From positions 12,364,850 to 12,428,849 of the forward strand of contig NC_134029.1 of NCBI RefSeq assembly GCF_964204645.1: DNA of 64,000 nucleotides, read 5' to 3'. This document shows positions 15,288-61,316 of this stretch, one piece after another. A program made the translations under genes and the position numbers. A model generated the notes under the pieces. That model did no database searches, had not been told where the DNA came from, and saw only the letters and a program-made list of their open reading frames with translations. The stretch is from Tubulanus polymorphus (taxonomy: Eukaryota; Animalia; Nemertea). The first letter of the stretch is position 1, and the number at the start of each line of letters is the position of its first letter.

Positions 15288-15444
<157 letters not shown>

Positions 15445-22994: not shown

Positions 22995-23961
22995 ACTAGG
23001 GGTCCAGGGACACCATGCCCACTAGGGAAGTGGTTCCAAATGCTCAACAATCTACAATTTCAATATTCCCCCTGGTGACCATATGCAAAAACCAATGACC
23101 TTGAAACTCAATACAATCATAAAACATGTCAGCAGCTACGATTTTGTAATTGATTGTGGTAACAAAATATGCCTCGTTACCAATTTAATATGGAAATACT
23201 AAGTTAATCTACTATTCAACGCCCCCTGGTGACCATATTCAAAACCCAATGACCTTGAAACTCACCGCAATCATAGAACACGTCACGAACTATAACTTTG
23301 TAATTGATCATGGTAACAAAATATGCCTAGGTACCAATATAATAAGGAGATACTAAGTTATTCTACTATTCAACGCCCCCTGGTGACCATATAGAATAAC
23401 TAATGGCCTTTAAACTTGCGACAATCATAGATGATGTCATGAACTACAACTTTGCAATTGATTGTCGTTACAAAATATGCATTGATACGAATATAATATA
23501 GAAATACTAAGATATTGTATTATTCAACGCCCCCTGGTGGCCATATACAAAAACCAATGACCTTGAAACTCACCACAATCATGGAACACGTTATGAGCTA
23601 CAAGTTACTAATTGATTGTGGTAACAAAATACGCTTAGGTATCAATATAATGTGGAAAAACATTTTCCCACCTACGAATGAGTACTGATGACACCAAAAT
23701 GGCCGCCAATTGCGTCATAATTGGCTGATCAAAAATACCTGTCTCAGGTATAAAACATCCCTTTTCAAAGAATACCCATCACAAATTGCAATGAGAAATG
23801 GCAAACCAGTAGGGAGCTACAGCACTCAGAATTCGGGCCAATATTGACATTTTTGGGCACTAAAAAGGTCATAGGACGGTCATCTTGAGTCCGATCGACC
23901 CAATTTTTGCTATGCTGATGGGCCCTGGGGGGTATTCACATACATCCGAAAGATCAAGGTT
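22995..23961 (+). repeat. HINE/Helentron-like element with internal ~155-bp tandem units
   Basis: Starts ACTAGGGGTCCAGGGACACCATGC, as at 63246 and near 18138. About 4 tandem units containing TTCAACGCCCCCTGGTGACCATAT. Confidence 0.7.
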
Positions 23962-25827: not shown

Positions 25828-27573
25828 TTTTTCCCACCTACGAATGAGTACTAATGACACCATGATGGCCACCAACTGCGCCATAATTGGTTGATCAAAA
25901 ATACCTGTCTCAGTTATAACATCCCTTTCCAAAGAATACCCATCACAAATTGCAATGAGAAATGGCAAACCAGTAGGAAGCTAGAGACTCAGAATTCGGG
26001 TCAAAATTGACATTTTTGGGCACTAAAAAGGTCATAGGATGGCCACCTTGAGTCCGATCGACCCAATTTTTGTTATGCTCATGGACCCTGGGGGGAATCA
26101 AATATAAACGAAAGATCAAGGTAATTGATCAAAGCGTCTTCAAAATTTCCCTCAATAAGTTCAAAACGTGTAAAAAAAGCTGATTTTGGCAAACAACAAC
26201 GGCTGCCAGTCGGCCAGCTTGATTCTGACAGGGCCAGTTTTTGGGCTGAAGATGTGTCTAGGGTAGATACATGTGTAAACCAAATATCAAGACATTGCAT
26301 TGAAGCGTCTTCAAAACTTCCCAAAATAACTGGATTCCGTCTACGGACGGACGATGGACAAAAAGTGAACGAAATAGCCTGCTGGGACTAAAGTCCCGAG
26401 TGGGCTAAAAATGGATGAGGTCAATTTTAATTTTTCATTAATCATTATTTTGTCTAACTGGTGAAACCAACGGAATAAAGTCTAGGCTTTTTAAATAATG
26501 CCTAGGTACCAATACGATATGGAAATACTAAGTTATTCTACTATTCAACGCCCCCTAGTGACCATATGCTAAGCCTGTGACATTGACTCTCACCATCATC
26601 ATAGAACATGTCATGAGCTACAACTTTGCTATTGATCATGGTAACAAAATATGCCTAGGTACCAAAATAATAAGGAAATACTACGTTATTCTATTATTCA
26701 ACACCCCCTAGTGACCATATAGAATAATTCATGTCCTTGAAACTTACCACAATCAGAGACCATGTCATGAGCTGCAACTTTCTAATTGATTGTGGTATCA
26801 AAATATGCATATATATGAATATACATAGAAATACTAAGTTATTGCATTGTTCAACGCCCCCTGGTGGCCATATACAAAAACCAATGTGTTCGAAACTCAT
26901 CACAATCAAAGAACATGCCATGAGCTACAACTTTGCAATTGATTGTGGCAAAAAAATATGCTTAAGTATCAATATAATATGGGAAAACCTTTTTCCACCT
27001 ACAAATGAGTACTGATGACACCAAGATGGCTGCCAATTGCGTCATAATTGCCTGATCAAAAATACCTTTCTCGGGTATAAAAGATCCCTTTTCAAAGAAT
27101 CCCCATCACAAATAGCAATGAGAAATGGCAAACCAGTAGGAAACTACAGGACTTAGAATTCGGGCCAAAATTTACATTTTTTAGCACTAAAAACGGTCAT
27201 AGGTCCGCCATCTTGAGTCCGATCGACCCAATTTTTCTGTAGGTGATGGGCCCTAGGGCGATTCAAATATATACGAAAGATCAAGGTAATTGATATAAGC
27301 ATCTTCAAAATTTCCCTCAAAAAGTTCAAAAATTTGTAAAAACAACAATGGCTGCCAGTCGGCCATCTTGAATCTGACAGGGCCAGTTTTTGGGCTGAAG
27401 ATGTGTCTAGGGTAGATACATGTATGAACCAAATATGAAGACATTACATTGAAGCGTCTTCAAAACTTCCCAAAATAACTGGATTCCGTCTACGGACGGA
27501 CAGACGGACGTATGACGGACGAAAAGTGAACGCAATAGCCCGCTGGGACTAAAATCCCAAGTGGGCTAAAAAA
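25828..27573 (+). repeat. Two adjacent partial copies of the same HINE-like family
   Basis: Homologous to 23060-23960. Each ends in (GACG)n plus a stem-loop and A-run (near 26410 and 27573). Confidence 0.7.
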
Positions 27574-34300: not shown

Positions 34301-37300
34301 AGGGATATAGTAGTTCAGTGAGAGTTCAAACTTATGGGTAATTTTGAGTGATCACAACGCTGACCAATAGAGAAACCTGTATCACAACAAAAGTGCGACT
34401 TATCTTATTGAAAAATACCGGAGAGTCAATGGGAGAACCCTGAATTCGAAACAATTCCACACTGGAATCGTCTACTTTGAAAACACAATTTGGAATTTGT
34501 GGACATGCATTATTTCTGCACCAAAAGCATGAAGTATATTATCCTTGCTTGTAAAAATTTGAAATTTTGAGGAAGATTTTTGGCCTCGTTAACCTGTGAA
34601 CATACAGTCCTTCATACATTTTCTAAGACCGACCCTTGAAATAATGCTGAGAGTTTAGAGGAAAATTATGGTAGAATGTAAACTTAGGCCGCTTCGTATC
34701 CGTGGAAGGTTGCTAATTATTGATTTTATGCACAATAATCATAAGTACCATAGGATCCATAGAATATCGTTTATCAATCATACGTTCACAAACTATCGCG
34801 ATATAAAGATAAATAGTACTTAATATACTTTTTACTTCTCATACGGTATATTTCTTTAGTAGTATAAATAAAGAGTGGATCAGCAGGCCACCTGAGACCA
34901 TTCCACGATCTAGGTCAGTTGCCAAATGTTAGTAAGTTTACTTACCAGTGGATAGTTAAAACAACTTTGTATATGGACAATAGTCACACTCAAATGCGGA
35001 GAATTGATAATACGATAATACGATACGATCACTGTGTACAAATTCAAAAAGATGATCTCTAGTGAGAGATCGAACGTTAAGTCGTTATTTTCTAATGGTG
35101 AAACTTGGTTTGAAATTTGAAATGTGCACATAGTGGATCTTCTTCATATTAACAGTGTATTTGGTCATGTATCATATTGTATAATGGTTAACTTAAACTA
35201 ACTGGTCCCAGAGTTGTATCCTTAATTCCTGTAATAGAGGATGCAATCTTTTTGCGACTAACAGTACAAATAGCTAGAAAAAGCAACGATAGTGCATTGG
35301 CAAACTAAAAGCAAGCGTACATTGGTTGTTTAAGTTTTTCTTTGGGAAAATTAATGTTTAATCATTATTGAAATATCCGAGGCGAGCTTTTCCAGGAATT
35401 TATGAAGTTGAGCTTACAAATATTTTACCACAATTTTTTATGATTAGTAAAAAGATTAAGTAATAGACATACATGCAAACAGTAATATCTGAAGTCCACT
35501 CCATTTCAAACTCATTCATCTTTACACAAACTCCAACTTGTTGAACAGTTCAAAATCGCGTGGCTTGAATTATTACGATAACTAAAATCAGGGACCACGA
35601 TACTTGCTCATCTACACTGGCTACCAATTTAACAAAGGATTGAATTTGAGTGTTTGATGTTGTAACAAAAGGCCTACCATACTGAATGATAGATTCAGTT
35701 TCTACTTTTTGATTGAACATTTATATCACATATTGGGTCATTTTTACTGGTATATATGGAAGAACCTATCCATATATCATGTTTAATTTTATATAATCTG
35801 ACTTTTGAGATGTCATTCAACCAATGCATTCATATGCGGCCGTCACGTTCAATCGCCACCACGGACTGGCTCCTTATTAGGCCCATCTCCTTGGCGATAC
35901 CTTGGCGGACGATCCCACACGTTTCTTGCACCAGCCCTAGAATCAGTGAAATTGGCGCTTTTCAGTTGTATTCATCATTCAAATCCACAATTCTCCTATC
36001 CTAAAAATGTGGAGACCCATCCTCGTATGAGAATGAATATAATATAGGCTCTGTTGCGTTCATATCATTTGATATGAGGCTCCGTGTCATCTTTAATTGA
36101 AATCTTGTGATTTCAATTAAAGATGACACGATGCCCTATATTATTACGTTATGTTTTTTAACGGGTGGGTGAGAATATATTCTTATGATTTTGTTGCTCT
36201 GAATGTTGCTATTTAAGAGTTCAATCATTTCAGTCTACCAAACAAAGGATTTTTCTGTATGTTTCGTGTCCTGTTTTTCCATAACCCTAGGACTGCATTT
36301 TAGGTATTTTTCGCGGATGACCGAAAGCTGCTGTCCCTTTCTAGTAATTTGACATATCTCCTTGTTTGACTAAGTATGAACTCAACTTTGAGGGACACTC
36401 CCTTAAAAGGCACCGAAATAAAACATGTGTTGAGTGGAGATGATATTGTGTCAGAATTTCTTCAAAAGCGGAGGAACTTGAATATTTTGAAAATAATGAT
36501 CTTACATTTATGTTTAAATCCGTTATAACTGGAGCAATTTTCATAAAAACATATCTATGGAATCAGCGAAATGTAATTAAGAAGAATACTATGTTTAAGA
36601 TGTTATCAAATACATTTGAAAAAAGTTTTCTGAATTCGTCAACTGTGAAACTAGTGTCAACCAGATGTGTTCCCATTAAACAACCGACCGCGAGCCGAGT
36701 CGATGTGAGATGAAAATCTCAAGCGCTACCACCGGTTTTTAGGTGCCTCTGAATAACGGCCGTTAAAAAACTGAACAATTGCCACTTGGAAAGGGCCTAG
36801 TGAGAGAAAATGCTAGATGTGTATATCGTGTGATACAGGCTCCATATTTCATGTGCGTTTGGAATTTAACCTTGTTTATAACGAAACACACATGTTTTTT
36901 TTCTACTTAGATTTAAAAAGAGCGCATGATAGTGCAATAAAGAACTGACAACGAAAAAGGGGTAACAGGTGACTGATATCACACCGAATTTCAATTCCTC
37001 TATGAACACTTTTCATATAGTGAATTCAATACATGAGTAAAAAAACTTGAAATATTAACGAAACAGTTTTTTGACGGACAAATCGTTACCATCGAATTTT
37101 CAAAACTTTTTTAATGCCTTGGTGACCACTGGTCTAGTACGCGGTTTTCTGAAACAAAAGTGACCAAGTCTAAAGAACAACTATTGTAACAAATCATTTC
37201 AAATATTAGGAGCCTAATGCGTTTAATGCTTTAATTAATTGGTATCGCGCTGATTGGTTGAAAGATGGGTAGTAGGGAATATGTTTGTTCAGGCCAGAGG

Positions 37301-37529
37301 TCGAGAGGTCGAGCTCACTCAACCTCTCTCCCTCTGACCTGAACAAACATATTCCTTATTACTCTATCCAATCACAAGTCTCCTAATTTACAAGTCTCAA
37401 CACGCTGGGGATTCCCCATTACTGTTGAGTAGTATAAATAAGCGGGTATTTCTGCTATACTCATAGGTGGCGGGGACGCGTTGAGCGGTAAGTGTTATTT
37501 TCAATTTTAATAAAAAATTTGATATTTAA

Positions 37530-37883
37530 ATGGAGAGTAAACAAGTACACAGTGAGAACAACAAATCATTTCTAGATAGAATAAAAGATACTACAAATGT
37601 AAAATCTGTAGATTATAAATTTAAGAATTTAAATGAACTAACAATTCATAAGAAATATTTAATTACAAATATTAAAGCAGTTACTAATAGATATAGTGAT
37701 AAATTAGTAATTCACTTAGAATATGAAGGATTAAGAGGAAATAAATATAAATTCAGAACATATTTACCAGATAGATTTCATAGATTATCAAGTGAAGATC
37801 TAGAAGAATTATGTTCTGGTGATTTCTATTTCATTTATAAAGGTAAGAATGAAAAAGGGCACAATGAAATAGATTTCGAATAA
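37530..37883 (+). CDS. Maverick small conserved protein (paralogue of 44124-44486), function unknown
   Basis: Intact 117-aa ORF with a TAAATG start. Highly similar to the inner-copy gene. Confidence 0.75.
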   Translation: MESKQVHSENNKSFLDRIKDTTNVKSVDYKFKNLNELTIHKKYLITNIKAVTNRYSDKLVIHLEYEGLRGNKYKFRTYLPDRFHRLSSEDLEELCSGDFYFIYKGKNEKGHNEIDFE

Positions 37884-37897
37884 AATATGTAAAATAA

Positions 37898-38656
37898 ATG
37901 GTAAAATTAAGAGAATATAGAATATTTGTTGATTCAAGAAGACTTACAAATTATAAATCTCATAATTTATTGATACAACTAGATAGAGAATTTAAGAATT
38001 GTGTAGATTTAAAATTAGTAAATGTAAGTTTATGTAATTCTTTTTATAATGTATCGAATAAAACTCTTGAACATAGAGCCTTTTTAATTTCTAATAAAAG
38101 TAAAAATAAATGGTATCATCTATCCCTAAAACCAGGGTTATATAATTTAGATACATTGTCACAAGAAATTAATAGAAAAGCCTGGCACAAATTAGGTAGT
38201 GATTCTGGGTTTGGCATTATATTTTTAAAAAGTGAGAGTTTTGATAAAATAAAGATAAGGTTAGCTCATGGTGAAAAACATCAATTTTTAGTTAAAAAAC
38301 CTATGGCTAAACTGTTAGGAATTACACCAGATAAACTTGATTCAAATATTGATGCTACACCAAACTTAATACCGTACACACATTTTTATATTTATTGCAA
38401 TTTAATTGATACTACAAAAACATTCGAAGCAACTAAAGATACAATTTGTAATTCTAGTATATTGAATATTTTACCATTGAAGAACGTTAAAGAATTTGGA
38501 ATGCAAATAAATTATAATTTAACAGAATGTGATTTTAAGCCTTGTATTCCACATTTCAATAATTTTAAATTAGAAATTAGAAATCACAATGGATACTTAA
38601 CTGATTTGAATAAATTTCCTGTAATTTATGAATTAGTTATAAGATGTAAAGAATAA
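37898..38656 (+). CDS. Minor capsid protein (penton, single jelly-roll), intact
   Basis: Motif order IFVDS..., PGLY, LLG, FYIYCNLI, ILNILP, LEIRNHNG..DLN..PV..EL fits Polinton/PLV pentons. Confidence 0.75.
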   Translation: MVKLREYRIFVDSRRLTNYKSHNLLIQLDREFKNCVDLKLVNVSLCNSFYNVSNKTLEHRAFLISNKSKNKWYHLSLKPGLYNLDTLSQEINRKAWHKLGSDSGFGIIFLKSESFDKIKIRLAHGEKHQFLVKKPMAKLLGITPDKLDSNIDATPNLIPYTHFYIYCNLIDTTKTFEATKDTICNSSILNILPLKNVKEFGMQINYNLTECDFKPCIPHFNNFKLEIRNHNGYLTDLNKFPVIYELVIRCKE

Positions 38657-38672
38657 TTTTTTCACTATATAA

Positions 38673-40113
38673 ATGAATATAACTGTTGGACCGAGTATAT
38701 GTTTTGGGTTTGATTTTAAAAATGGTAAAGAAATGAGGATTAAATTAAATTATGTAATTACTGATATAAAAAGTAAGTCATTTAATAATGCATCAATGAT
38801 TAATAAAGAAAATTATGATATAGAAAAAGTAATTGATTTAATTAAATCATCTTTAGAATATTATGAATTAAATGAAGATGGAATTATCGATGATATGAAA
38901 AACATATTATCTAAAATATATGATAATCATAAAAGTAGTAATAAAATAAATGTTGAAATAATTATAACAAAAATAAAAAAAATATTTTGATGATAGTATT
39001 TCCGTTGATAAATAAATGGCGGATCAGAAGTGGATAACCACTGGTTTATATAATGGAGCATTACTATCAGTTGGAACTGTTGGATATACAATGGTATTAA
39101 AAAAGTATTTAGAGTGAGAAGTATTAACGTTGATAGATTTGATATTAATGATATTTTAAAATTAACATTAGCAGTTACTTTATCTAATTTAACAATTGAT
39201 TATTTAGAAAAACAAAAATATATTCCTCCTATATAAATGCGTAATTTTTCTGCAATTATAACTATTATAGGATCAGCAATTGTTAACGCTTTAGAATTTA
39301 CAGGTGGTGGTTATTTATTTAAGCATATTGATAAAAATAGTTCAATAGCAGAACAAAGAAGACATAACTTAGCGTTAGAAAAATACAATAAAGCTGCAGA
39401 ATAATACAGAGAAAAGAGACAAAACTATATGGATTATATCAATAAAGAATTACATAATCAGAAAGTTACACATAGAGATTTTCAATCAGTTGATGAAGCT
39501 TTGAGTTTATATAATGCAGTAACAAATAAAGAAAAATTACATCTATACAAACCTAAATTATCAGATTATTATACACCAAGTAAAGAACAACAAAAATATG
39601 AAATAATTTGGATTTTAGGTGGAACAGTTATTGTATTATTTGTAGCATATAAATTTACTAAATAGTAATTTTTTTGCTACATAAATGGGTGATAAAGTTG
39701 ATAATAATGATATTATTCCTCATGATATTAATGAAATTAAATCAAAATTATATTTTGAAAAACAAATATTAGAAAATGATTTAAAAGTTAAAAAAAAAAA
39801 ATATTTAAAACGTAAAATTATATATTATTTTATTATAAGTGGTTCAGTAACAATTAGTTTTGTAATAACATTTCTAGCAATATTCAGTCCATTAACACCT
39901 TTAGCTATATCAATTGGTGTGCTAGGATTATCATCAAGTGTTTTAACCGGAATAAGTTCAAAATTAAATATAAAAGGTAATAAAGAAAAAATAAAATCTA
40001 ATATAAAAGAAATTAATAAATTAAAAAATACATACGATTATATTATAAGTTTAAATGGTAATATAACAATTCAAGAGCAGGATAAATTATTAAAAGAATT
40101 AATAAATTATTAA
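38673..40113 (+). pseudogene. Four small outer-copy genes (38673-38990, 39016-39236, 39237-39665, 39685-40113), some frameshifted or stopped
   Basis: Paralogues, in the same order, of 45266, 45622, 45868 and 46332. Confidence 0.75.
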
Positions 40114-40161
40114 TTTTTTTATTATATAAATGGCAATTAGTTTTCCAAAAGCTTTTCAATA

Positions 40162-40370
40162 AGTAATAGGGGTAATGGGCTTTCAGGCCAAAGGTCGAAG
40201 GGTCGAGCTCGTAAAAAAATGAAAATAACAATAATTTCCAGTTGAATTAGTCGCGCACACTCCTAATTCAACTGGAAATTATTGTTATTTTCATTTTTTA
40301 CTCACTCGCCCCTTCAACCTTTAGCCTGAAAGCCCATTACCCCTATTACTCTTAAAATATTCATATACAT
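40162..40370 (+). repeat. Left TIR (209 bp) containing a 189-bp hairpin
   Basis: Reverse complement of 61103-61310, with a single 1-nt indel seen. Confidence 0.95.
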
Positions 40371-43300
40371 TACTTATAAACACATACCTTTGTAATATAT
40401 CTTTGTAGAAAATGTTTACATAAATTCAGTAAATGAAAGTACATTATTAAATCATAAACAATTATGTGAAAATCATGATTATTGTAAATTAGTTTTACCA
40501 AATGAAAAGGATAAAATATTAGAATTCAAAAAATATGATTACAAAAATAAAGTACTATTTGTAATATATGGAGATTTTGAATCATTAAATAAAGAACTAA
40601 CTGATCAAGATATATATTATATAAGAAGAAATATATTATAAAAGAAAGAAATTAAACTCTAATGAAAATGATTTTTCAGTTGAACCACCAAAAACAAATA
40701 CAATTAAAATGATTAATCAATCAGCTGCTGCTTTCGGGTTATATATTAAATCTGATTATCCAGAACTAATTGAAAGTGAATATTATCATTATAGAAATGA
40801 AAATGTTATCAATCATTTTTGTGACTTATTAATTGAATATGAAATAAGATTTAATGAAAAGTTAAATAAAAATATAAAAATTATAATGACAGAAGAAGAT
40901 AACGAAGCATTTGAGTTTGCAGATAAATGTTATTATTGTGAAAAGATATTTAATTATAAAGATAAAAATGTAAGAGACCATGATCATTTGAATGGAAAGT
41001 TTAGAGGCGCTGCACATGAGAATTGTAACTTACAAGCTAAGAAAATTAACTTTGTACCAGTTATATTTCATAATCTATCAGGATATGATGCTCATTTATT
41101 TATCAAACAGCTATGTTATAAAATAGAAGAAATCAATAATGAAATAGAAAGATTAAATTCAAATAGATCAAAAGATAAAATACCAACTTATAAATTTAAA
41201 ATGTTAGCTAGAACATCTGAGAATTGTATATCATTCCAATTTGGGTGTTTAAGATTTATAGATTTTTATATAGTTCATTAGATAACTTATCAAAATCATT
41301 AGTTGATGATGAATTAAAAATATTAAAACAACACTACCCAAATAATGATGATTTCCAATTAATGAGATATAAAGGCGCAATTCCATATTCTTTCTATAAA
41401 TCACATAATGATTTTAACATAAATGAATTATTGAACAATTCTATGATGAATTAAAAAATGAATATGTTAAAGATGAAGTCTATAATAGAACATTGAATAT
41501 TTGGAATCATTTCAAAATAGAAAATCATGGACAATTAGTAGATTCATATCTAAAATCAGATGTATTATCATTAGCCGATATATTCGAAAGGTTTAGAGAT
41601 GTAAACCTAAAATATTTCAATATTGATCCTTGTCATTGTTATTCTAGTCCAGGTTTAACATGGGATTGTGGATTAAAATTTACAGATATAAAAATGGATT
41701 TGTTAACAAATATAGATCAATTATTATTATTTGAAAAATCTATAAGAAGAGGAGTTTCAGGTGTATTAGGGGATAGATATTTCAATGTAAATGATAACCC
41801 TGGATATAAATTATTATATATAGATGCAAATAATTTCGGTGTTGTCATATCGCGGAAAGACGGAATCGCGGAATTTTCCAAAAACGCGGAATTTCTTCAT
41901 TTCTACTTTAAATAGTAAACGGATTTTTTCCACGGGGATACCCACTGTCGGACAAGGCACCGGACCGATCGATGCAACGAGTTAGGTTCGAATCCCATTA
42001 TTTGCAGGCAATTTTATATGGAATTATTATATTACGATACCGTTGACTGAGCCAAATTCGGTTTTCGTATCTAGTCGACTAGTAGTCGAAACTAATAACC
42101 GAATGCGCTTGATTTTCGAACTATTTCCGGAAGTCACAAAGTAAACATTAAAAAAAACGAAACCATTTTATAATCTTTCATATCATTTAATTCAAAAAGA
42201 TAAACCACATTCGCTTATAACAACAATGTAGACACACAACACGCATGAACAATCCTAAGCCAGAATGAAATATACATAATGTCTATTTATTTTCGTCTGA
42301 CATCGATCCAGTTCCACAGTTGTGAGCTAACTCTCAGTTACTTAGAATCAATTCATTTCCAATGTTTTAAATCCAGAGACCAGAGTCAAATCTTAACTTG
42401 GAAATGAGTCCCGAAGAATGATCCATGGTGTCATCACAAATCCTACGTTTACGTACCATCGATTTGTATTCCTTCAGTTAATGCAGCGATACTCTGTATC
42501 ACTGAATTCGCAAAGCACGTATTGCCTAGGTTCTCCATTATTTGGAACAGTATCGTTAAGTTGTTGACTGGCGATATAGTTAACTATCAAATACTAATTC
42601 CCGGTGTTGAAAACCTGGGTCCGGTGCCCTGTCCGACAGTGGGTATCCCCGTGGGAAAACCCCGTTTACTATTTATAGTAAAAATGAAGAAATTCCGCGT
42701 TTTTGGAAAATTCCGCGATTCCGTCTTTCCGCGATATGACAACACCGAAATAATTTGTATGGTTGGGCAATGATGGAACCACAACCTTATGGAGTATTTG
42801 AAATAAGTGAAGTTTCACAACATGAAAATAATGATAAATTTGATTGGAAGAAAAGAATCCTAGATATTGCAGATGATTCAGATACTGGTTACTTCTTTGT
42901 TGTAGATTTAGAATATCCTGAACATATTAAATTTAAATCTAGAAATCTAGCATACTGTCCAGAACATAAAACTGTAACTCATGAAGAATTATCAAATTAT
43001 CAAAAAAGAATTAAACCCGAAAATCATATTCATACAGAAAAGTTAATGGTAACTCAAGAAGATAAATATAATTATGTAGTACATTATAGAATGTTAAAGT
43101 TTTATCTAAAACAAGGAATGACCCTAAAAAAAGTACATAGTTATATTTCATTCAGTCAATCTAAGTGGTTAGAAAAATATATAGATTTTAACACCAAACA
43201 AAGAACTGAAGCTAAAATTGATTTTGAGAAAGATTTCTTCAAACTAATGAACAATGCATTCTATGGTAAGACTTAGTGAAAATATTAGAAATAGAAATGA

Positions 43301-44094
43301 TATTGAGTTAGTTAGTAATGGTAAAATGATAAGGCATTTACAATCATATCCTAAGTTTTTAGGTAACAGAATATTTGATGAAAATTTAGCTGCAGTTAAA
43401 ATGAGAAGAACTTCTATGAAATTTAATAAATCAATTTATGTTGGAGCATCAGTTTTAGAAATATCAAAATTACTAATGTATGAATTCTATTATAATGTAT
43501 TACAACCTCATTTTGGAGAAAAACATATAGAAATCTTATATTTTGATACAGATTCTTACATATTAAAGATAAAAACTAATAACATAACTGATGATTTAAA
43601 AACATTAAAACATCATTTTGATTTCAGTAATTATCCTAAAAATCATGAATTGTTTAGCAATGATAATAAAAAGCGTCCCGGTAAATTCAAAGATGAATTA
43701 GGTGGTGAAGAAATGATAGAGTTCATTGGTATTAGATCCAAAATGTATTCATATAAAACTAAAGAATATGAAGCTAAAGGAATAACGTTAAATAAAGTTA
43801 AAAGGAATAACCAAAAGTGTAGTAGAAAAGAATATTCATTTCAAAGATTACATCAATTGTATATTCAAAGAAGAAGTTAGAAAACATAAAATGAGATGTT
43901 TAAGATCTGAAGATCATGAAATGTTTATTGAAGAGATAGAGAAGATAAGTCTAAACCCATTTGATGATAAAAGATATATTCTGGATGATGGAATTCATAC
44001 AGTTGCTTATGGTTGTAATTTAGATGAATACTTAAAATTTAAAAGAGAAGAAACAAAAGAGAACGAGATAATGAAAAGAATTCTAACGTGTTAA
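40371..44094 (+). pseudogene. polB: Protein-primed family B DNA polymerase with endonuclease-VII-like Zn insert; 5'-deleted, frameshifted and MITE-interrupted
   Basis: Motifs YGDFES, CYYC...RDHDHLNGKFRGAAHENCN, FHNLSGYD, YLKSDV, YIDANN|LYGWAM, KLMNNAFYGKT, YFDTDS, GKFKDE and RSKMYS. Confidence 0.95.
41837..42747. mobile_element. MULE-like MITE (911 bp, ~130-bp TIRs, 9-bp TSD) inside polB motif A
   Basis: CGGTGTTGTCATATCGCGG...CCGCGATATGACAACACCG flanked by AAATAATTT (41828-41836, 42748-42756). Confidence 0.92.
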
Positions 44095-44123
44095 TCAAAT
44101 TTTAATAAAAATATGTATTATAA

Positions 44124-44486
44124 ATGGAGAGTAAACAAGCAAACAGTGAGAACAACAAATTATTTCTAGATAGAATAAAAGATACTTCAAATGTCAAATC
44201 AGTAGATTATAAATTTAAGAAGTTAAAAGAATTAATAATCCATAAGAAATATCTAATTACAAATATTGATACAGTTACTAACAAATATGGAGATAAATTA
44301 GTTATACACTTAGAATATGAAGGATTAAAAGGAAATACATATAAATTCAGAACATATTTACCAGATAGATTTCATAGATTATCAAGTGAAGATCTAGAAG
44401 AATTATGTTCTGGAGATTTCTATTTCGTATACAAAGGTAAGAATGAAAAGGGGCATCATAAAATAGATTTCGAAAAAAATATGTAA
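44124..44486 (+). CDS. Maverick small conserved protein, function unknown
   Basis: Intact 120-aa ORF; paralogue at 37530. Confidence 0.75.
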   Translation: MESKQANSENNKLFLDRIKDTSNVKSVDYKFKKLKELIIHKKYLITNIDTVTNKYGDKLVIHLEYEGLKGNTYKFRTYLPDRFHRLSSEDLEELCSGDFYFVYKGKNEKGHHKIDFEKNM

Positions 44487-44491
44487 AATAA

Positions 44492-45249
44492 ATGGTAGAA
44501 TTAAAAGAATACAAAATATTTGTTGATTCTAGAAGACTTACAAATTATAAATCACATAATTTACTAGTACAATTAGATAGAGAATTTAAGAATTGTGTAG
44601 ATTCAAAATTAGTAAATATAAGTTTATGTAATTCTTTTTACAATATATCGAATAAAACTATTGAAGATAATACTTTTTTAATTCATATTAGAAATGTAAA
44701 TAAATGGTTTCATCTAATTTTAAAACCAGGATTATATAATTCAGATACATTAGCTCAAGAAATTATCAGAAGAGCACGGTTGAAAATTAGAAGTGAAGAT
44801 AAATTTATAATTAGATTTATAAAAAGTGATAGCACAAATAAAATTAAAATAAAGTTACATGATGAAAGTCAACATGCATTAATGGTAAAAAACCTATAGC
44901 TAAACTGTTAGGAATTGTACCAGATACTGTGACAGGAAACGTAGATGGTAATTCAAATTTAATGACTTTTACGCACTTTTATATTTATTGCAATTCAATT
45001 GATCCTACAAAAACATTTGAAGCAACTAAAGAAACAATTTGTAGTTCTAGTATACTAAATATTTTACCGCTAAAAAATGTTAAACAATTTGGAACGCAAA
45101 TAAATTATAATTTAACAGAATGTGATTTTAAACCTTGCATTCCTAAATTTAATAATTTTAAGTTAGAAGTAAGAAATCATAATGGATACTTAATTGATTT
45201 AAATAACTTTCCTGTGATATATGAATTAGTTATAAGATGTAGAGAGTAA
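44492..45249 (+). pseudogene. Penton (minor capsid), 1-nt frameshift near 44890
   Basis: ORFs 44492-44899 and 44929-45249 join to match the intact 37898-38656 protein. Confidence 0.8.
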
Positions 45250-45265
45250 TTTTTTCATTATATAA

Positions 45266-45625
45266 ATGAATATAACTGTTGGACCGAGTATATGTTTTGG
45301 GTTTGATTTTAAACGTGAGAAAGAAATGAAATTTAACATTAATGATGTAATTACACATATTAGAAATATTGCATTTTCTAATGAAACAACATTTGAGTAT
45401 GAAACAACAATAGATAAAGAAACTTTAAATGTAGAAAAGATTACTAATTTAATTAGAGAATCTTTAAGATTTTATGAATTAGATGAAGATTTTATCATCG
45501 ATGATATTAAAAAAATAATAATTGAAATATATACAAATGAAACTAGTAATGAAATAAATGTTGAATTAATCATAAATAAGATAACTAAATATTTTGAAGA
45601 TAGTAATTTTTTGATAAATAAATGA
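45266..45625 (+). CDS. Hypothetical Maverick protein (119 aa)
   Basis: TAAATG start. The paralogue at 38673 shares MNITVGPSICFGFDFK. Confidence 0.65.
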   Translation: MNITVGPSICFGFDFKREKEMKFNINDVITHIRNIAFSNETTFEYETTIDKETLNVEKITNLIRESLRFYELDEDFIIDDIKKIIIEIYTNETSNEINVELIINKITKYFEDSNFLINK

Positions 45626-45843
45626 GTGATAATAAGTGCATAATAACTGGATTATATAATGGAGCATTACTATCAGTTGGAACTGTTGGTTATTCAAGGG
45701 TATTAAAAAAAGTATTCAAATTGGGAAGTGTTAATGTTGATAGATTTGATATAAATGATATCTTAAAATTAACATTAGCAGTTACTTTATCTAATTTAAC
45801 TATTGATTATTTGGAAAAACAAAACTATATTCCTCCCATATAA
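45622..45843 (+). CDS. Small hydrophobic/amphipathic protein (73 aa)
   Basis: Two hydrophobic helices; paralogue at 39016. Confidence 0.7.
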   Translation: MSDNKCIITGLYNGALLSVGTVGYSRVLKKVFKLGSVNVDRFDINDILKLTLAVTLSNLTIDYLEKQNYIPPI

Positions 45844-45867
45844 ATGCGCAATTATTTTACTAAATAA

Positions 45868-46311
45868 ATGGCTTCTGCAATTATAACTATTATAGGATCG
45901 GCAATTGTTAACGCTTTAGCATTTACTGGTGGCGGTTATTTATTTAAGCATATTGATAAAAATAGTTCATTAGGAGAACAAAGAAGACATAACTTAGCAT
46001 TAGAGAAATACAATAAAGCAGCAGAAGAATACAGCGAAAAACGACAAAACTATATGGATTATATCAGGGAAGTCCCTGATTATATTAACAAGGAATTATA
46101 TGATCAGAAGATTTCACATAGAGATTTTCAATCAGTTGATGATGCAATGAGTTTAGATAACGCAGTAACCAATAAAGAAAAATTACATCTTTACAAACCT
46201 AAATTATCAGATTATTATACACCAAGTAATGAACAGAAGAAACATGAAATAATTTGGATTTTAGGCGGAACTGTTATTGTTATATTTGTTTCTTATAAGT
46301 TTACTAATTAG
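45868..46311 (+). CDS. Membrane protein with N- and C-terminal hydrophobic helices (147 aa)
   Basis: MASAIITIIGSAIVNALAFTGGGYLF ... IIWILGGTVIVIFVSYKF; paralogue at 39237. Confidence 0.75.
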   Translation: MASAIITIIGSAIVNALAFTGGGYLFKHIDKNSSLGEQRRHNLALEKYNKAAEEYSEKRQNYMDYIREVPDYINKELYDQKISHRDFQSVDDAMSLDNAVTNKEKLHLYKPKLSDYYTPSNEQKKHEIIWILGGTVIVIFVSYKFTN

Positions 46312-46331
46312 TAATTTTTTTTGATAAATAA

Positions 46332-46766
46332 ATGGATGATAAAGTTGATAATATTGATATCATTGCTCATGATATAAATAAAACTGAATTAAAAATATAT
46401 TTAGAAAAACAAATATTAGAATTTGAAAGTGATTTAAAGATAAAAAAGAAAAAATATTTAAAAAGTAAAATTATATATTATTTTATTATCAGCGGTTCAG
46501 TTACAATTAGTTCTGTAATAACATTTCTAGCAATATTCAGTCCATTAACACCTTTAGCTATATCAATTGGTGTATTAGGATTAAGTTCAAGTGTTTTAAC
46601 TGGTATAAGTTCAAAATTAAATATAAAAAGTAATAAAGAAAAAATTAAAAGTAATATAAAAGAAATTAATAAATTAAAAAATACACTAGATTATATAATA
46701 AGTTTAAATGGTCATATAACAGTTGAAGAAAAAAATAAATTATTAAAAGAATTCGTTAATTATTAA
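46332..46766 (+). CDS. Coiled-coil protein with two transmembrane helices (144 aa)
   Basis: Hydrophobic hairpin IIYYFIISGSVTISSVITFLAIFSPLTPLAISIGVLGLSSSVLTGI; paralogue at 39685. Confidence 0.75.
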   Translation: MDDKVDNIDIIAHDINKTELKIYLEKQILEFESDLKIKKKKYLKSKIIYYFIISGSVTISSVITFLAIFSPLTPLAISIGVLGLSSSVLTGISSKLNIKSNKEKIKSNIKEINKLKNTLDYIISLNGHITVEEKNKLLKEFVNY

Positions 46767-46782
46767 TTTTTTTATTATATAA

Positions 46783-48110
46783 ATGGTATATAGTTTTCCA
46801 AAAGCTTTCCAATATAATAAATCAATGAAATATAATATTCCAGCAATAGATTTTAATAAAGATATTTCATATAGAAATGAAGTTTTAAATTCATTAATTG
46901 ATTTATATATTTATGTTACTGAAAGTAATAATTTTCATGTAAAGATGGAAAATATATTTCATGTGTATACAATTAATTTTAAAAATCTAAATGAGGCAAA
47001 ACAATGGTTATTAAAATCTAATATGAAGTATTGGCAGAACCAATTAAATTTTGCTGTTTATTGCGCAACAACAGGATGTGGAATAAGTTGGAATGATCAT
47101 TTAAATAAACCAAGTTTACCATTGATGTTATCACTTTTTAGATTTCATACTTATTTTCAAATAAAATTAATATTAGATGAATTAGAATGTCCTTTACCAG
47201 GTTCAAAATATTTTTAAGAATTGAATAATAATATTAATTTTTCTAAGTTTTATAAAATATGTAATGAATTTAATATTAATTCAAATAAAGATTTTAGAGC
47301 AAAAATTGGAACAATGGGTGGATTAGGAATATTATATACTAAAGAATTTGGAAAAATAATGACAAATTCAGATATAAGAATACTAAATTGGAATGAATTA
47401 CCAAAATATTATAATAATATACAACAACAAAATAATAATGGTTGGGTTTATTTCATTTTAGAAAATAGTGAAGGTTTTACTAAAGCTGGTATACAAAGAA
47501 TAAATCAATCAATTAGAACTTATTTGATATGTATTTTAGGTGCGCAAGTTGAAACAAGATCGCCAATAGTTGGAAATGATAACGCTTCATTCGATGCGCA
47601 GAAACAATTCAAAGTATTATTTGAAGATTCCATTCATAATGATAAAAATAGATCGATTCCAGAAAACATTGTAAGATATCAAAATTATTTAGATAAATCC
47701 CATATTAGACTTAATTATTGTATAGGCCCTAATCTATTAATTATTTCTAATGATTTAGTATTAAAGATGGGAAATATAATTGGTTATAATAATCTAATTA
47801 AAAACTGCAACAATAAATAATTCATTTGGATTGAATGATATAAATAAAAAGATTATTACTGCTCCAAAATTAATGGAAGGTGAAAAAAAATAAAAAACAT
47901 ATTCAATCAACAGAAACTAAAACTAAGAATATTAAATTAAATAATGATTCTAAAATAAGAGATTACAATACTACAGAAAATATAGAAACTGATATTATTC
48001 AACATGAAATAATTAAACTAAATGATGATAATAAATCCCATGAAAATACTAAATTAGCTATAACCTGTATAGGAATTGTAATCGGAGGAATATTATATTT
48101 TAAATTTTAA
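46783..48110 (+). pseudogene. Conserved Maverick protein (~440 aa) with C-terminal TM anchor; one stop and a frameshift
   Basis: WQNQLNFAVYCATTGCGISW, ILGAQ and FDAQKQF motifs. Fragments 46783, 47221 and 47880 are collinear with 61317-62578. Confidence 0.8.
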
Positions 48111-52019: not shown

Positions 52020-52520
52020 TATTAGTTGAAAATTGTATAAAATAATAGTAAATAAAAAAGGGTTTTTTAAGTATTTAAGGTATTTAAGGTATCTAATACA
52101 TATCTAATACAATCTAATACATAAAATATCCTATTTTATAAACTGATATTCATATGGAAATTGAAACCTCAGTAATAATAAATAACCTTTATTATTTTCA
52201 AACTTATTCATATATTAGTTGAAAAAATAAAAATAAATTGGTTGAAAATTGTATAAATAATATTTATTTTGAAAAAGGGGTTTTAAGTATTTAAGGTATC
52301 TAGTAGGGTATCAGGTATTAGGGTATCAGGTATTAGGGTATCTAATAGGGTATCAGGTATTAGGGTATCTAATAGGGTATCAGGTATTAGGGTATCTAAT
52401 AGGGTATCTAATACATAGGTATACAAATAGTTATTTTACAAATTTATATTCATAGGGAAATATATTCATCTCAGTAATAATTTTGAACCTTTATTATTCT
52501 TTAATTTATTCATATATTCA
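52020..52520. repeat. Intergenic duplication with an expanded TAGGGTATC minisatellite between convergent gene blocks
   Basis: Unit GTTGAAAATTGTATAAA...CTCAGTAATAAT...TTATTCATATATT occurs twice. The second copy carries the array at ~52300-52412. Confidence 0.75.
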
Positions 52521-52529
52521 TCATGAAAT

Positions 52530-53039
52530 TCAGTAGGTATAATTTGATTCCAATGATTGTTGCATAGATTTTTTATCTTTGTTATAAAATAAAACTAGAA
52601 ATCTTATATTCTCCCTAAAGTCTTTAACAATTGAATTATATTTTTGATTTAAAACCCATGTTGTTATCCCAAAATGTCTCCCAGAGAAAGCTAAATAACA
52701 TAACTCACTTTCTCTCACTTTTGAATCATGTAAATTAGCGCAAACATCTACAATGAATAATGTATTTGATCCTTTATAGATATCAATTGCTATTTTTAAA
52801 CAATTATCTAAATTTTCTTTTACTGTTTTAGGATCTAATATAATAAACTTTTTTATCTTAATTATATCTCTATTATATGTTTTATTCATTTCATAAGTAG
52901 GACAGAATAATATTATATTATCAAAATGATTCTTATAAATAGTTTCTAACAAATCTAATATGAAATGTGTTTTACCACAGTTTGTTACCCCAGTAACTAA
53001 CATATTATGCGGTTCAAATATAAATAAATCTTTATTCAT
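52530..53039 (-). CDS. A32/FtsK-like genome-packaging ATPase (probably degenerate)
   Basis: Walker A GVTNCGKT, Walker B LFIVDV (DD expected), and GRHFGI...LNQ. Confidence 0.88.
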   Translation of the reverse strand: MNKDLFIFEPHNMLVTGVTNCGKTHFILDLLETIYKNHFDNIILFCPTYEMNKTYNRDIIKIKKFIILDPKTVKENLDNCLKIAIDIYKGSNTLFIVDVCANLHDSKVRESELCYLAFSGRHFGITTWVLNQKYNSIVKDFRENIRFLVLFYNKDKKSMQQSLESNYTY

Positions 53040-53169: not shown

Positions 53170-53416
53170 TGTTGAATATTGTAAGCAAGCTTATCTGTAT
53201 ATCCTGTTGTTACGGTTTATGGTCGAGTTAGTTCACGGTTTATTACTCACATTATTTGTACCTTATATAAATACAGTATTGGGAATGAATTCTATGTCAT
53301 TTGTATCTGCGATATACGTGTGTGTGTTATTGGTCTCTGGTGCGCCCGTTTAAGGGCCCGATCGTCGCAGAGTTTTCTACATTTTTGGTCCCTCAAGCCC
53401 TCGAGCCTGGAAGTAC

Positions 53417-54541
53417 GTGATGGCAGAAGACGGACGGCAAAGCGAAGGCTACAAAGGCCTTGTGCGGAAGAGGACAGCCCAGCGGGGACAAGTCACGATG
53501 ATTTTGAATGACGCAGATTCGGTGGTCAACTCAAGAACAACTCAGGCGCCGGACATCGCGAAACTCGAACGATTGGCGCAGCGACTCGAGAGCAAGATCA
53601 CGCTTCTGACTGACATAAATGAAGAAATGTTGGTGATGATAAAAGATGACAGCGTCTACATGCAAGTTTCGAATGAAGCAGAAGAGGCCATTTCGAATGC
53701 CACTGATCGTAAGTTGTTTTATGAACAATATTTGAAAAATACGACGTTAACCGCTACTAAAGTTAGAACTGAAGGATTTCGGAAATCCACACTTCCGACG
53801 CTTAAATTGCCCACGTTTACTGGGAATCTGCTTGAATGGTCTACCTTTTGGGGGTTGTTTGAATCAACAGTGCATAATAATTCAGCGTTTTCTAACATTG
53901 AGAAATATAGTTATTTGCTCGGTCAAATTTGTGGTGACGCTAGAAGTTGTATTGACGGTCTTCCTATGACTTCAGACAACTATGATAGTGCCGTTGAATT
54001 ATTACAAAATCGTTTTGGTCAGACGCACCGTTTGTCAAAAGCATATTTGCAGGCTTTAACTGAATTGAATCCGCCAACAGCTGAAGTTTCGTCGTTAAGG
54101 CGTTTTTATGATAGTTCTGAAACGTATATTCGACATCTCGGTTCAATTGGTATTTCTACGGAATCCTACGGCGTGATGCTTGTTCCAGCTATGTTGGACA
54201 AGTTACCTTACGATGTTAAAATGTCTATGGAAATTATGTGTAATAAACCTGATAGTGATTGGTGTTTATCTGAGCTCAGAGAAGCTTTGCTTGTCCAAAT
54301 TCAATTAAAGGAATCATGCATGTCACCAGAAACGAACGCGCCTATTCAATCGTTGCATTTAAATATCAATTCAAAACAATCTGTTAATTCGAAACCCGTC
54401 AGGAATGTTACTCGAAACTGTGTGTACTGTTGTAAATCTCATTTGCCATCAGATTGTTTTTATGTTACCGACGTTAGGAAGAGAAAGGACATCGTTCAGA
54501 AGGCAGGCTTATGTTTTAATTGCAACGAGGCTTCACGGTAG
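53417..54541 (+). CDS. gag: BEL/Pao Gag (DUF1759-type), truncated within the zinc knuckles
   Basis: LPTLKLPTFTGNLLEWSTFWGLFESTVH, NYDSAVELLQNRFG, and CVYC..SH...DC...LCFNC. Confidence 0.9.
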   Translation: MMAEDGRQSEGYKGLVRKRTAQRGQVTMILNDADSVVNSRTTQAPDIAKLERLAQRLESKITLLTDINEEMLVMIKDDSVYMQVSNEAEEAISNATDRKLFYEQYLKNTTLTATKVRTEGFRKSTLPTLKLPTFTGNLLEWSTFWGLFESTVHNNSAFSNIEKYSYLLGQICGDARSCIDGLPMTSDNYDSAVELLQNRFGQTHRLSKAYLQALTELNPPTAEVSSLRRFYDSSETYIRHLGSIGISTESYGVMLVPAMLDKLPYDVKMSMEIMCNKPDSDWCLSELREALLVQIQLKESCMSPETNAPIQSLHLNINSKQSVNSKPVRNVTRNCVYCCKSHLPSDCFYVTDVRKRKDIVQKAGLCFNCNEASR

Positions 54542-55805
54542 AATTACAGCGGAAGAAATGCATTCCGCAGAATATTGGTGGATAAAATTCATTCAGGATT
54601 CTGAGTTTCCAAAGGTACGCGAACAATTGACGAAGGTTCAGGGTAACAAAGGTTCTTGCTTGGCCATTGTTAATCAATTACAATTATATATAGGTAACGA
54701 TAATTTGATAAGATGTAGAGGGAGATTGCAAAATGCTCCTATTATCGATTCTGCTAAGACTCCAATATTACTCCCAAAATATCATTACCTTACTCGTTTG
54801 ATAGTGTACAGAGAGCATTGTTACAACTTCCATTCTGGAGTTAATTCTACTATCGCAAAACGCGGTGAGCCGTGCAGTTCATTTGGAGCTTGTGTCAGAT
54901 CTTACTACAGAACAATTCATATTAGCATTTAAGAGATTTGTGTCACGTAGGTCCGTACCTAGACAGCTCATTTCTGATAATGCATCTACGTTCACTTGTG
55001 CTAATGATATTCTGATCCGCATTTTTTCTGCAGTAGAATTTTCGACATATTCATCCCAACGAGGGATTAGTTGGAGATTCATTCCAAAACGTGCGCCGTG
55101 TCACGGCGGATTTTATGAACGATTAGTAGCTTTGGTGAAATCATCAATTTATAAGGTGCTAGGTAGAACCTCCGTGACATTTGATGAGTTGCATACTTTA
55201 GTTACGCAGATTGAAAGTCGATTAAATAACCGTCCAATTACGTATATATCTGATGATCTACGCGACCCGGAACCTCTGACTCCGTCCATGCTCCTTTGTG
55301 GACACCGTCTTACTTCTGTTCCGGTTGCAGATTTTGATAATACTGATCCAGACTTTCGTGTTGATAATGAGAAATTTGTGAAAAGATATAATTATTTGGA
55401 TTCATTGATTACACAATTTTGGAATAGATGGAAGGTGAATATGTGTTAAGTTTACGTGAGTTTCACTGTACTACGGGCCATAATTGATGTGATATTAAGG
55501 TCGGTTCAGTAGCTCAAATTCACGATAGCGGTCCTGGTTTAAGGTGGCGTCTAGGTGTAGTTACTGAATTACAGCTGGGAAACGATGGCCACGTGAGATC
55601 CGCATCTCTTAAAACATCAACCGGATTTACGAATAGAGCTATAAGTTGTTTGTATCCGTTAGAGGTTTGCGCTAAGGAACCCGTAATAAGTTCTTCAGTG
55701 AATGATGCTCCAGTATCAACACGTCCGAAGAGAGCAGCGGCAGTTGCAGCAGAAGCAAAAATTCGTCAACTTTCGCGCCGGGCGGAGGAGTCGGATGATG
55801 ATTAA
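54540..55805 (+). pseudogene. BEL/Pao integrase remnant
   Basis: LIRCRGRL, HSGV, RAVHLELV, SDNA, GGFYERLV, LNNRP and LYPLEV motifs, with an internal deletion and stops. Confidence 0.88.
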
Positions 55806-56170
55806 TTGCGCTCTTGAAATATTTATAATACTTGCTGTTTAAATCGAATTTAATTATTGTATGTATATCTGTATTTTTATTTGAGGTAAACTTGAATGGT
55901 GTAAGAAAATGAAATTGTTATATCAAATTTGAGATTTATATATTTGCGGCGGGAGAAATGTTGAATATTGTAAGCAAGCTTATCTGTATATCCTGTTGTT
56001 ACGGTTTATGGTCGAGTTAGTTCACGGTTTATTACTCACATTATTTGTACCTTATATAAATACAGTATTGGGAATAAATTCTATGTCATTTGTATCTGCG
56101 ATATACGTGTGTGTGTTATTGGTCTCTGGTGCGCCCGTTTAAGGGCCCGATCGTCGCAGAGTTTTCTACA

Positions 56171-56994
56171 TCTATTTCATCTAGATTTGGTACAAGTGAT
56201 AATTCTTGTTCATAGAAATAACCTAATATTTCTTCGTCTTTTAGATCTTCTAGTTTATAAACAAAAGGTTTAGTTAATATTATCTTTTTAATCTTGAATA
56301 TTTCTTCTGTAAAATTAGGGGTATAACCTTTATAAAATGTTTTTCTATATTTAGATATTCTGACATGTTGCCTAATTTTAAATTTAGGTTCTCCGAAATC
56401 ATGTGTAACAAACGCACCATATAAATTATTCCAAACTATTTCCGAATTATCTTCTTTTCTAGATTGTATAGGTTTCATATTTGCTTTTTTATCTGAGTGT
56501 GTTGAAAAATAATCTACATCGTTATCAGATAATAGTTTTTTGAAATGTTTGTTATAAAATTCTTTACCTTCATCAAATTGTATCTTATCTGGAATAGCTT
56601 CTTTAAATATTGATTAAAAAGCATTTTTTACTTCTATACAAGTTTTATTTTTGATTGGAATTGACCATGCGTATCTACTGAATATGTCTATAACATTCAG
56701 TATCCAGAAATATCCTTTGTTGTATTCCTCTAAGTTCTTCATGTCAATTAAATCTGCTTGCCATTGTTGATCGATATATGAAACCATAACTTTTCTTGTT
56801 AAATAAGTTTTATCCATTTTCTTGTGGATTTGATATGTTGGTTGATTTTGTAACCATGATTTTAATTCACTATATTTTATATTACCATTTTCCTTATCAG
56901 ATTTAATTTTATTCCATAATTCTGAAACGTTAGAATATGATACTTCACTTTCTGGGTAATAATATAACTCTCTTAAATATTGTTCTTTTTTCAT
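56171..56994 (-). pseudogene. Maverick retroviral-like (rve) integrase, frameshifted and internally deleted
   Basis: WQADLIDM, VIDIFSRYAW, IQFDEGKEFYN and KGYTPNFTEEIF are present. The ERFNRT segment carrying the catalytic Glu appears deleted (reads SDKKA-NMKP). Confidence 0.9.
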
Positions 56995-57000
56995 CTTATT

Positions 57001-61310: not shown

Positions 61311-61316
61311 TCAATA

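Follow-up and report, generated by a model that had tools for sequence, protein, structure and literature searches.

The question raised by this locus is what a palindrome built into each TIR could do for a Maverick/Polinton element. In the Polinton model, an excised strand pairs its two TIRs with each other and is then copied by protein priming. To our knowledge, excision, replication and re-integration of Mavericks/Polintons have never been demonstrated experimentally, and the standing model is one of simple TIR panhandles.

The element and its palindromic ends

Unless another contig is named, coordinates refer to the window, i.e., the whole stretch of 64,000 nucleotides that was analyzed. 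The element and its ends comprise the following features:

40162-61310, forward strand: whole Maverick/Polinton copy, defective, 21,149 bp
40156-40161: left copy of the TSD TCAATA, 6 bp
40162-40250, forward strand: outer arm of the left terminal palindrome
40251-40262, forward strand: loop of the left terminal palindrome
40263-40350, forward strand: inner arm of the left terminal palindrome
40211-40300, forward strand: AT-rich apical palindrome, hairpin positions 50-139, with CTC on each side, missing from the short hairpin type
40351-40370, forward strand: inboard 20 bp of the left TIR, non-palindromic, from end-to-end comparison
61103-61122, reverse strand: inboard 20 bp of the right TIR, from end-to-end comparison
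61123-61310, reverse strand: right terminal palindrome, 188 nt, which in reverse complement equals the left palindrome save for one A-run base
61311-61316: right copy of the TSD TCAATA, 6 bp

The left end (40162-40350, forward strand) is an imperfect palindrome of 189 nt, in which arms of 88 nt enclose a 12-nt loop, TCGCGCACACTC, and the outer arm contains two intact GGTCGA repeats. When the right palindrome is read as its reverse complement, the sole difference between the ends is one base in an A run (A7 versus A6). Identity of both ends runs 20 bp past the palindrome, to 40351-40370 and 61103-61122. The TIR hence measures about 209 bp, with self-complementarity in its outer 189 bp. Mismatches between the arms lie at hairpin positions 28, 35, 42 and 47-49 and are joined by an A-run bulge, the same set being found at both ends. 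DNA folding yielded -80.4 and -85.0 kcal/mol for the two ends, compared with -14.3 ± 3.1 kcal/mol for 200 shuffles (z = -23.8). The terminal 26-mer occurs four times in the window (none expected from 100 shuffles), and a repeat finder recovered both palindromes as well as the long-range inverted repeat. Contigs from three sequencing runs and raw Illumina reads from a fourth cover the palindrome, which excludes an assembly artefact. The terminal palindrome thus is a real and well-supported structural feature. The preliminary description had read each Maverick TIR as a fold-back hairpin, with mismatches preserved identically at the other end and a terminal sequence present four times, and our analyses bear out all three statements. 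An Rfam search and a tRNA scan over the window returned no family and no tRNA, respectively, and the conserved motif of the outer arm had no exact match among viral contigs.

The TSD directly abuts the outer arms on both sides, and neither palindrome is flanked by a duplication of its own. The flanking sequences 37501-40161 and 61311-62571 have an internal counterpart in the element, 44095-48017, with 84-94% identity, and there both flank halves are contiguous around a single CCAATA:

46809-46814, forward strand: paralogous uninterrupted ('empty') site CCAATA, within the element

From this contiguity at the internal paralogue it follows that the entire 21,149-bp unit entered a fragment of a related, older element in a single insertion. 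Alternatively, an independent palindromic MITE or foldback element could sit at both ends, or have been recruited to them as in a composite transposon, and each palindrome does bear a left-type and a right-type terminus. Such an origin is opposed by the lack of a TSD for the hairpin alone and by a TIR that reaches 20 bp beyond the hairpin.

Several other repeats are present in the window. Two inverted repeats, 18814-19505/23962-24653 (692-nt arms, 99% complementary, 4.5 kb apart) and 11177-11462/11615-11900 (286-nt arms, 97% complementary, 152 nt apart), are probably other transposons. A 154-bp satellite-like tandem repeat was found at 23068-23675, 26493-26881 and 63325-64000, and a 31-bp tandem array (62922-63280) closely follows the truncated fragment of the older Maverick on its right side. 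The many 'perfect palindrome' entries listed by the repeat finder stem from a (TA)n microsatellite of about 150 bp (15291-15442).

The recognizable genes of the element are as follows:

40395-44091, forward strand: pPolB, broken, matching residues 429-1365 of the closest full-length homologue
about 40889-41035, forward strand: EndoVII-like segment inside pPolB
52530-53039, reverse strand: A32-like packaging ATPase (PF04665, E 2.5e-10, 40.7 bits with a cut-off of 22.8)
56116-57000, reverse strand: two-piece rve integrase that lacks about 49 internal residues when compared with the integrase of L095, an IMG/VR contig
58232-58882, reverse strand: stand-alone EndoVII/HNH-like nuclease ORF (phrog_1035, E 6.6e-13)

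The pPolB gene lacks its N-terminal ~430 residues; its frame changes several times, and it is interrupted by one transposon. The shortfall is seen against the closest full-length homologues (P0006, P0004 and P0011), with homology beginning 45 bp inboard of the hairpin, and the missing N-terminus has no match anywhere in the window. The inserted sequence, a 913-bp non-autonomous DNA transposon (41836-42748) with 143-nt TIRs that are 94% complementary and a 7-bp duplication AATAATT, splits pPolB in motif A. Read directly, the pPolB pieces carry the family B polymerase motifs NNLYGWAM, KLMNNAFYGKT and YFDTDS. At E<=1e-5, 61 homologues of 1,200-1,400 aa were listed, up to 81% identical; PF03175 and PF02945 are flagged in some of them, the latter in 9 of the 61 listed. 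Named homologues come from spiders, aphids and a brittle star, with about 42% identity. Taken by itself, one polymerase piece gave a weak Pfam match (E 0.026). A PDB sequence search with a polymerase piece yielded chance-level matches only (E >= 0.22), and PHROGs returned no match for the polymerase pieces. With the EndoVII-like segment in pPolB and a second EndoVII/HNH-like gene, the nuclease content of the element is as the preliminary description had it.

For both integrase pieces the L095 integrase, of the rve+chromo type, gave a match (E 9e-25 and 3e-29), and Pfam rve scored below its cut-off (E 0.0018). Candidate ORFs for a capsid or an adenovirus-type protease gave no Pfam or PHROG match. 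Among the ORFs scanned, many of them without any match, there was no HUH/Rep domain. Mavericks/Polintons as a family have TIRs, a 6-bp TSD and a 5'-AG terminus. Here we find pPolB, an rve integrase, an A32-like ATPase, TIRs, a 6-bp TSD and 5'-AG...CT-3' termini. By its sequence the element is hence classed as a Maverick/Polinton, and this copy, with its truncated, broken pPolB and broken integrase, as defective. With both genes broken, it would depend on proteins from other copies.

The element also hosts an LTR retroelement remnant (53170-56171) with 213-bp direct repeats (53170-53382 and 55959-56171) that are 100% identical; its gag-like ORF carries DUF1759 (E 3e-34), a BEL/Pao-type domain. 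Taken together with the polymerase homologues, this remnant points to a probable invertebrate host. Beside the ATPase gene, a tandem array of 12-15-bp units (TAATAGGGTATC / GGTATTAGGGTATC) at 52274-52408 contains the octamer TAATAGGG, which also stands at the very terminus of the TIR; the array could be another cluster of putative binding sites.

Pairing across hairpin types and copies

A third hairpin allows the arms to be compared between two types:

37268-37363, forward strand: third, short terminal hairpin, 96 nt, marking the left end of the host of the insertion, an older Maverick-like fragment

It folds with -34.2 kcal/mol (shuffles -8.0 ± 2.5) and has the same polarity as the 189-nt ends, so that all three ends in the window are alike. 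Its outer-arm core is common to the 189-nt form, it has no AT-rich apex, and its centre is CTCA. The 189-nt form would accordingly be described as the short hairpin with a 90-nt, CTC-flanked palindrome inserted at its apex, in which case the mismatch block 47-49 would correspond to the loop of the short form. Arm by arm, the 46 stem pairs of the short and the long form compare as follows:

unchanged between the two forms: 27 of 46
changed on both sides, pair kept: 10 of 46
changed on one side, pair kept: 3 of 46
mispaired in one form: 6 of 46

Ten of the 12 outer-arm differences between the types are thus mirrored on the inner arm, the kind of compensatory change for which the preliminary description had proposed to look. 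Stem pairing has been maintained through the sequence divergence of the hairpin types. Across both types there are seven mismatches (28, 35 and 42 in one, 27, 34, 35 and 43 in the other), and at all seven the outer arm has the state common to both types while the inner arm deviates. If they were independent neutral changes, this would have a chance of (1/2)^7, about 0.008. The GGTCGA copies of both hairpin types are intact in the outer arm (4/4), and those of the inner arm are broken by these mismatches (4/4). The mirrored changes are clustered in blocks (11-13 and 17-20), which may reflect arm-to-arm copying instead of selection on pairing.

The palindrome might also be a neutral by-product, i.e., a past snap-back or template-switch error of a strand-displacing polymerase that was followed by apex expansions and has been hitch-hiking since. 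Its nested build from a short hairpin and a 90-nt CTC-flanked apical palindrome, the hypervariable apex seen in reads and the absence of a palindrome from other Polinton relatives would agree with such a history. We nevertheless consider it quite unlikely in view of the ten of 12 differences mirrored between two diverged types and of mismatches that occur in the inner arm only, at corresponding places in both types (27/28, 34/35 and 42/43; chance ~0.008).

How these features behave among copies can be judged from sequencing reads. We used three contig sets (X1-X3) from runs of one study with search word shares of 0.31-0.47, together with one raw-read run of the same species label. The X1-X3 contigs, of about 60-300 nt, are too short to bridge the hairpin. 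Summed read depth over 39800-40800 was distributed as follows:

flank: ~520-630
interior: ~420-550
loop bin: ~1061
40174-40207: ~3,270

Depth at the hairpin apex is about twice that of the interior, as follows from two ends per element. With reads mapped to 40145-40375, 1606 among the loose ends listed continue from 40162 into unlike flanks (flank agreement 0.34), which indicates many insertion sites and hence a multi-copy family. Also among the loose ends listed, about 1,130 reads depart from the reference at 40218/40219 into other apical sequences, and the apices seen in joint reads are shorter but likewise palindromic about a similar loop. It is hence the outer 57 nt that are conserved and the apex that varies; with read joints and loose ends at 40218/40219 and 40285-40304, the apical palindrome 40211-40300 is the variable portion among copies. 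The depth of the left arm is two to three times that of the right arm, and other apical variants account for only part of this difference.

Across the inner boundary at 40350 depth changes from 1379 to 1285, and at most ~94 reads (~7%) thus end there. This sets a ceiling on solo hairpins and on copies of opposite polarity. For the MITE explanation, read depth above expectation in the outer arm could be a point in favour. On the other hand, the apical depth of ~1061 over an interior of ~420-550 is the 2:1 ratio expected from two ends, at most ~7% of reads leave at 40350, and the diverged Maverick type carries its own, co-diverged hairpin at its end. With solo copies missing, an independent MITE is disfavoured, and we regard it as highly improbable. 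The same read data, i.e., the twofold apical depth and the few reads leaving at the inner boundary, speak against the earlier suggestion that the hairpin moves alone.

Polarity was equally uniform. At the positions that distinguish flip from flop (40189, 40196, 40203 and 40208-10) no variant reached 8%, and the loop showed no inversion and no variant of at least 8% except one C>T at 12%. The GGTCGA cores of the outer arm were without any variant of at least 8% among ~2,900 reads. These observations bear on a rolling hairpin of the parvovirus or poxvirus kind, in which the 3' end would prime itself and the hairpin would be transferred or resolved in each round. The architecture, a palindrome and a 20-bp inboard unique stretch within an inverted terminal repeat, is alike, and in a preprint a hairpin-priming model is proposed for protist elements (10.64898/2026.07.28.741278). 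However, flip and flop forms were not seen here (less than ~8% in reads, three of three window ends alike), no HUH nickase domain was found among the ORFs scanned, and the element encodes a protein-primed polymerase. The fixed polarity refutes a rolling hairpin unless resolution were strictly one-sided, so that we rate it as very unlikely. Self-priming, as put forward in the preliminary description, is thereby not supported, as all three ends share one polarity and no variant of at least 8% exists at the asymmetry positions.

Pairing between the arms could also be followed in the reads, which are 150 nt long and pooled over copies, so that linkage within a copy is outside their reach and placement on the wrong arm is conceivable. 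In these pooled reads, 16 stem pairs are variable; eight show complementary variants, and in five of the eight the two partners are about equally frequent:

40172 G>A (662/2414) with 40340 C>T (380/1327)
40177 (921/2497) with 40335 (494/1285)
40238 (523/922) with 40275 (425/813)
40239 (206/913) with 40274 (238/807)
40241 (179/906) with 40272 (160/808)

Two more variants, 40309 C>A and 40323 A>G, repair mismatches of the reference, and six pairs are unmirrored (positions 25, 26, 39/151, 50, 52 and 145). The genomic libraries showed no excess of molecule ends at 40162, and no folded-back reads were detected at the ends.

It is conceivable that the palindrome is never extruded and acts as duplex only. 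It would offer inverted sites to an integrase or terminal-protein complex, and occasional gene conversion would keep its arms alike. The conservation of the outer 57 nt including their invariant GGTCGA repeats, mirrored changes in blocks as conversion predicts, and the failure to detect molecule ends or fold-back reads are in agreement with this. Yet the inner-arm GGTCGA is broken in both hairpin types, and the inner arm is hence no second good site. Furthermore, the AT-rich apex changes in sequence and length yet remains palindromic in the variants seen, which points to pairing, not sequence, as the property that is kept. We therefore consider a function as duplex only rather unlikely.

Relatives of the polymerase and a proposed end mechanism

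Distant relatives were surveyed at 95 pPolB loci (656,634 bases) with 31-46% identity, except for the near-identical L001. An ungapped palindrome scan of these loci found four strong palindromes; they are rare, clustered upstream of the polymerase, and none is demonstrably terminal. A complete 5' ORF with at least 200 bp upstream was present at 47 of the 95 loci, and at three of these 47 (L040, L083 and L095) a palindrome precedes the polymerase by no more than 1.2 kb, that of L083 being almost pure AT. At L052, with 128 bp upstream only, a perfect 58-nt palindrome (17-74) lies 55 bp before the ATG. G+C-rich palindromes on metagenome contigs are those of L052 (17-74, 58 nt), L040 (134-192, 59 nt) and L079 (9623-9722, 100 nt), and those of L052 and L040 sit just upstream of the polymerase ORF. 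On L095, the best of them, a branched palindrome of 184 nt (4657-4840, fold -63 kcal/mol), is located between an rve+chromo integrase and an EndoVII-containing pPolB. As element genes lie on both sides of it, its terminal position is not established, and it could be an internal origin or a head-to-tail junction. The palindromes of L040, L083, L095 and L052 were not counted as terminal hairpins.

The closest metagenome relative, L001, is 99% identical to P0006; it begins inside the polymerase gene, and its end is therefore out of view. Long TIR pairs were present at two of 26 loci checked (L086 and L047), both non-palindromic (z -2.2 to +0.1). Terminal hairpins are thus not general among pPolB Polintons, nor are they generally required. 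In line with the preliminary expectation, hairpins are not routine in Polinton TIRs, judged from these two distant relatives with both TIRs captured.

The nuclease segments suggest another use for a palindrome, namely that integrated palindromes extrude as cruciforms, which the EndoVII-like domain of pPolB or the stand-alone nuclease would cut for excision or junction resolution. Two EndoVII-family segments in the element, PF02945 in 9 of 61 listed pPolB homologues and again in L095, whose pPolB follows a 184-nt palindrome, would all suit such a role, and the AT-rich apex would ease extrusion. Symmetric resolution, however, would yield hairpin-capped halves and, after copying, both polarities, whereas polarity here is fixed. 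The TSD moreover abuts the outer arm, so that the integrated unit retains both arms, and we found no literature that links Polintons with cruciforms. Cutting of an extruded palindrome hence appears unlikely to us.

Being integral to the TIR, with its pairing kept and its polarity fixed, the hairpin is a TIR module and neither a MITE nor a flip-flop telomere of the parvovirus or poxvirus type. Maintained pairing, a constrained outer arm and a spoiled inner arm are best fitted by a polar end module. We thus tentatively prefer, with somewhat less than even confidence, to view the 189-bp palindrome as an inherited, integral part of the outer TIR that likely allows local snap-back for protein-primed initiation. 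The outer arm, which alone keeps intact GGTCGA repeats, would be the recognized terminus, and GGTCGA a putative protein-binding site. With the inner arm, a displaced single-stranded end would be able to fold back on itself locally and form a duplex terminus, and this rebuilt terminus could then serve pPolB for protein-primed initiation or for end repair. Local snap-back would in this way replace the long-range TIR panhandle. We infer that the terminal strand folds in vivo, and that folding probably serves replication initiation, or end repair, by pPolB. Against local snap-back stand reads that never show folded or single-stranded ends and the six of 16 variable stem pairs that are unmirrored, and also the changes mirrored in blocks, the only partly explained depth of the left arm, the two relatives with ordinary TIRs and the preference of the Halocafeteria palindromes, discussed below, for non-pPolB replication genes.

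By analogy, we may further speculate about an animal Maverick lineage with a hybrid telomere, in which an asymmetric hairpin with conserved mismatch bubbles that disable the inner arm, as at the one-sided parvoviral origin, would be read by a pPolB carrying an EndoVII junction nuclease. We give this extension little credence. If it were true, hairpin or cruciform chemistry and protein priming would cooperate at one end, and the lineage would supply a missing mechanistic link from Polinton-type to hairpin-type linear DNA replicons. In any case, the ends of this family supply concrete cis-elements that can be tested, namely the outer as against the inner arm, the GGTCGA repeats and the apex. They also help to tell apart two current ideas, of which hairpin self-priming is disfavoured by the present data; local fold-back may still act as an origin or in end repair.

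Comparison with known systems

With classical Mavericks/Polintons the element has pPolB, an rve integrase, an A32-like ATPase, a 6-bp TSD, TIRs and the 5'-AG terminus in common. In contrast to them, each TIR here is self-complementary, which allows either end to fold locally. Palindromic MITEs and foldback elements likewise are short elements of two inverted termini; theirs, however, are solo copies with their own TSDs, of which none was seen for the Maverick hairpin in reads.

Parvovirus ends such as the AAV ITR and the MVM left end combine an imperfect palindrome with a short unique inboard stretch in the terminal repeat. In MVM, a mismatched bubble leaves one arm of the duplex palindrome as active origin, and a single orientation is kept. 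The Maverick hairpin similarly has one intact and one broken arm, although this is a resemblance of logic only. Parvoviruses have ssDNA genomes, self-priming and an HUH nickase, whereas the Maverick polymerase is protein-primed and no HUH nickase was found among the ORFs scanned. Poxvirus telomeres are AT-rich imperfect palindromes with extrahelical mismatches, whose duplex form is the substrate of a junction resolvase; they are covalently closed, with flip and flop in equal amounts. The AT-rich imperfect palindrome with mismatches is alike, but the Maverick has a fixed polarity and is an integrated element flanked by a TSD. PMC11296320 refers to the hairpin telomeres and the concatemer junctions of poxviruses.

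For endogenous virophages and a polinton-like virus of Halocafeteria seosinensis, a preprint of July 2026 describes ~52-nt terminal palindromes beside TSDs that go preferentially with non-pPolB replication genes, proposes hairpin priming and discusses hairpin formation after excision (10.64898/2026.07.28.741278). The preliminary description had set simple panhandles for Polintons against hairpins elsewhere; panhandles are still the standing model, but given these palindromes in virophage and polinton-like virus TIRs the opposition is outdated. These elements resemble ours in a palindrome at the TIR extremity that adjoins the TSD, in being integrated and in their rve integrases. Unlike theirs, the palindrome described here measures 189 nt (or 96 nt in the older type), belongs to a pPolB Maverick from what is probably an invertebrate genome, has a fixed polarity and carries conserved mismatches confined to one arm. 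Without flip and flop forms here, the self-priming model of the preprint does not fit this Maverick. Two further preprints mention palindromes merely in passing. In the literature searched, with Repbase and Dfam outside its scope and preprint supplements that may contain more, there was no report of self-complementary TIRs in pPolB Mavericks. New here are the short third hairpin, the mirrored differences, the one-arm mismatches, the multi-copy family in reads and the low flop and solo fractions. Terminal palindromes, recently reported for virophages and polinton-like viruses of protists, are thereby documented in a pPolB Maverick as well, whose host is probably an invertebrate.

Linear replicons of Streptomyces are protein-primed, and their 3' single-stranded ends fold into palindromic hairpins for end patching primed by a terminal protein. 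They are unlike the Maverick in being bacterial, with several short palindromes, replication from an internal origin and no integrase. Streptomyces telomeres are the closest functional analogue of the mechanism proposed for the Maverick ends, the likeness being drawn from mechanism.
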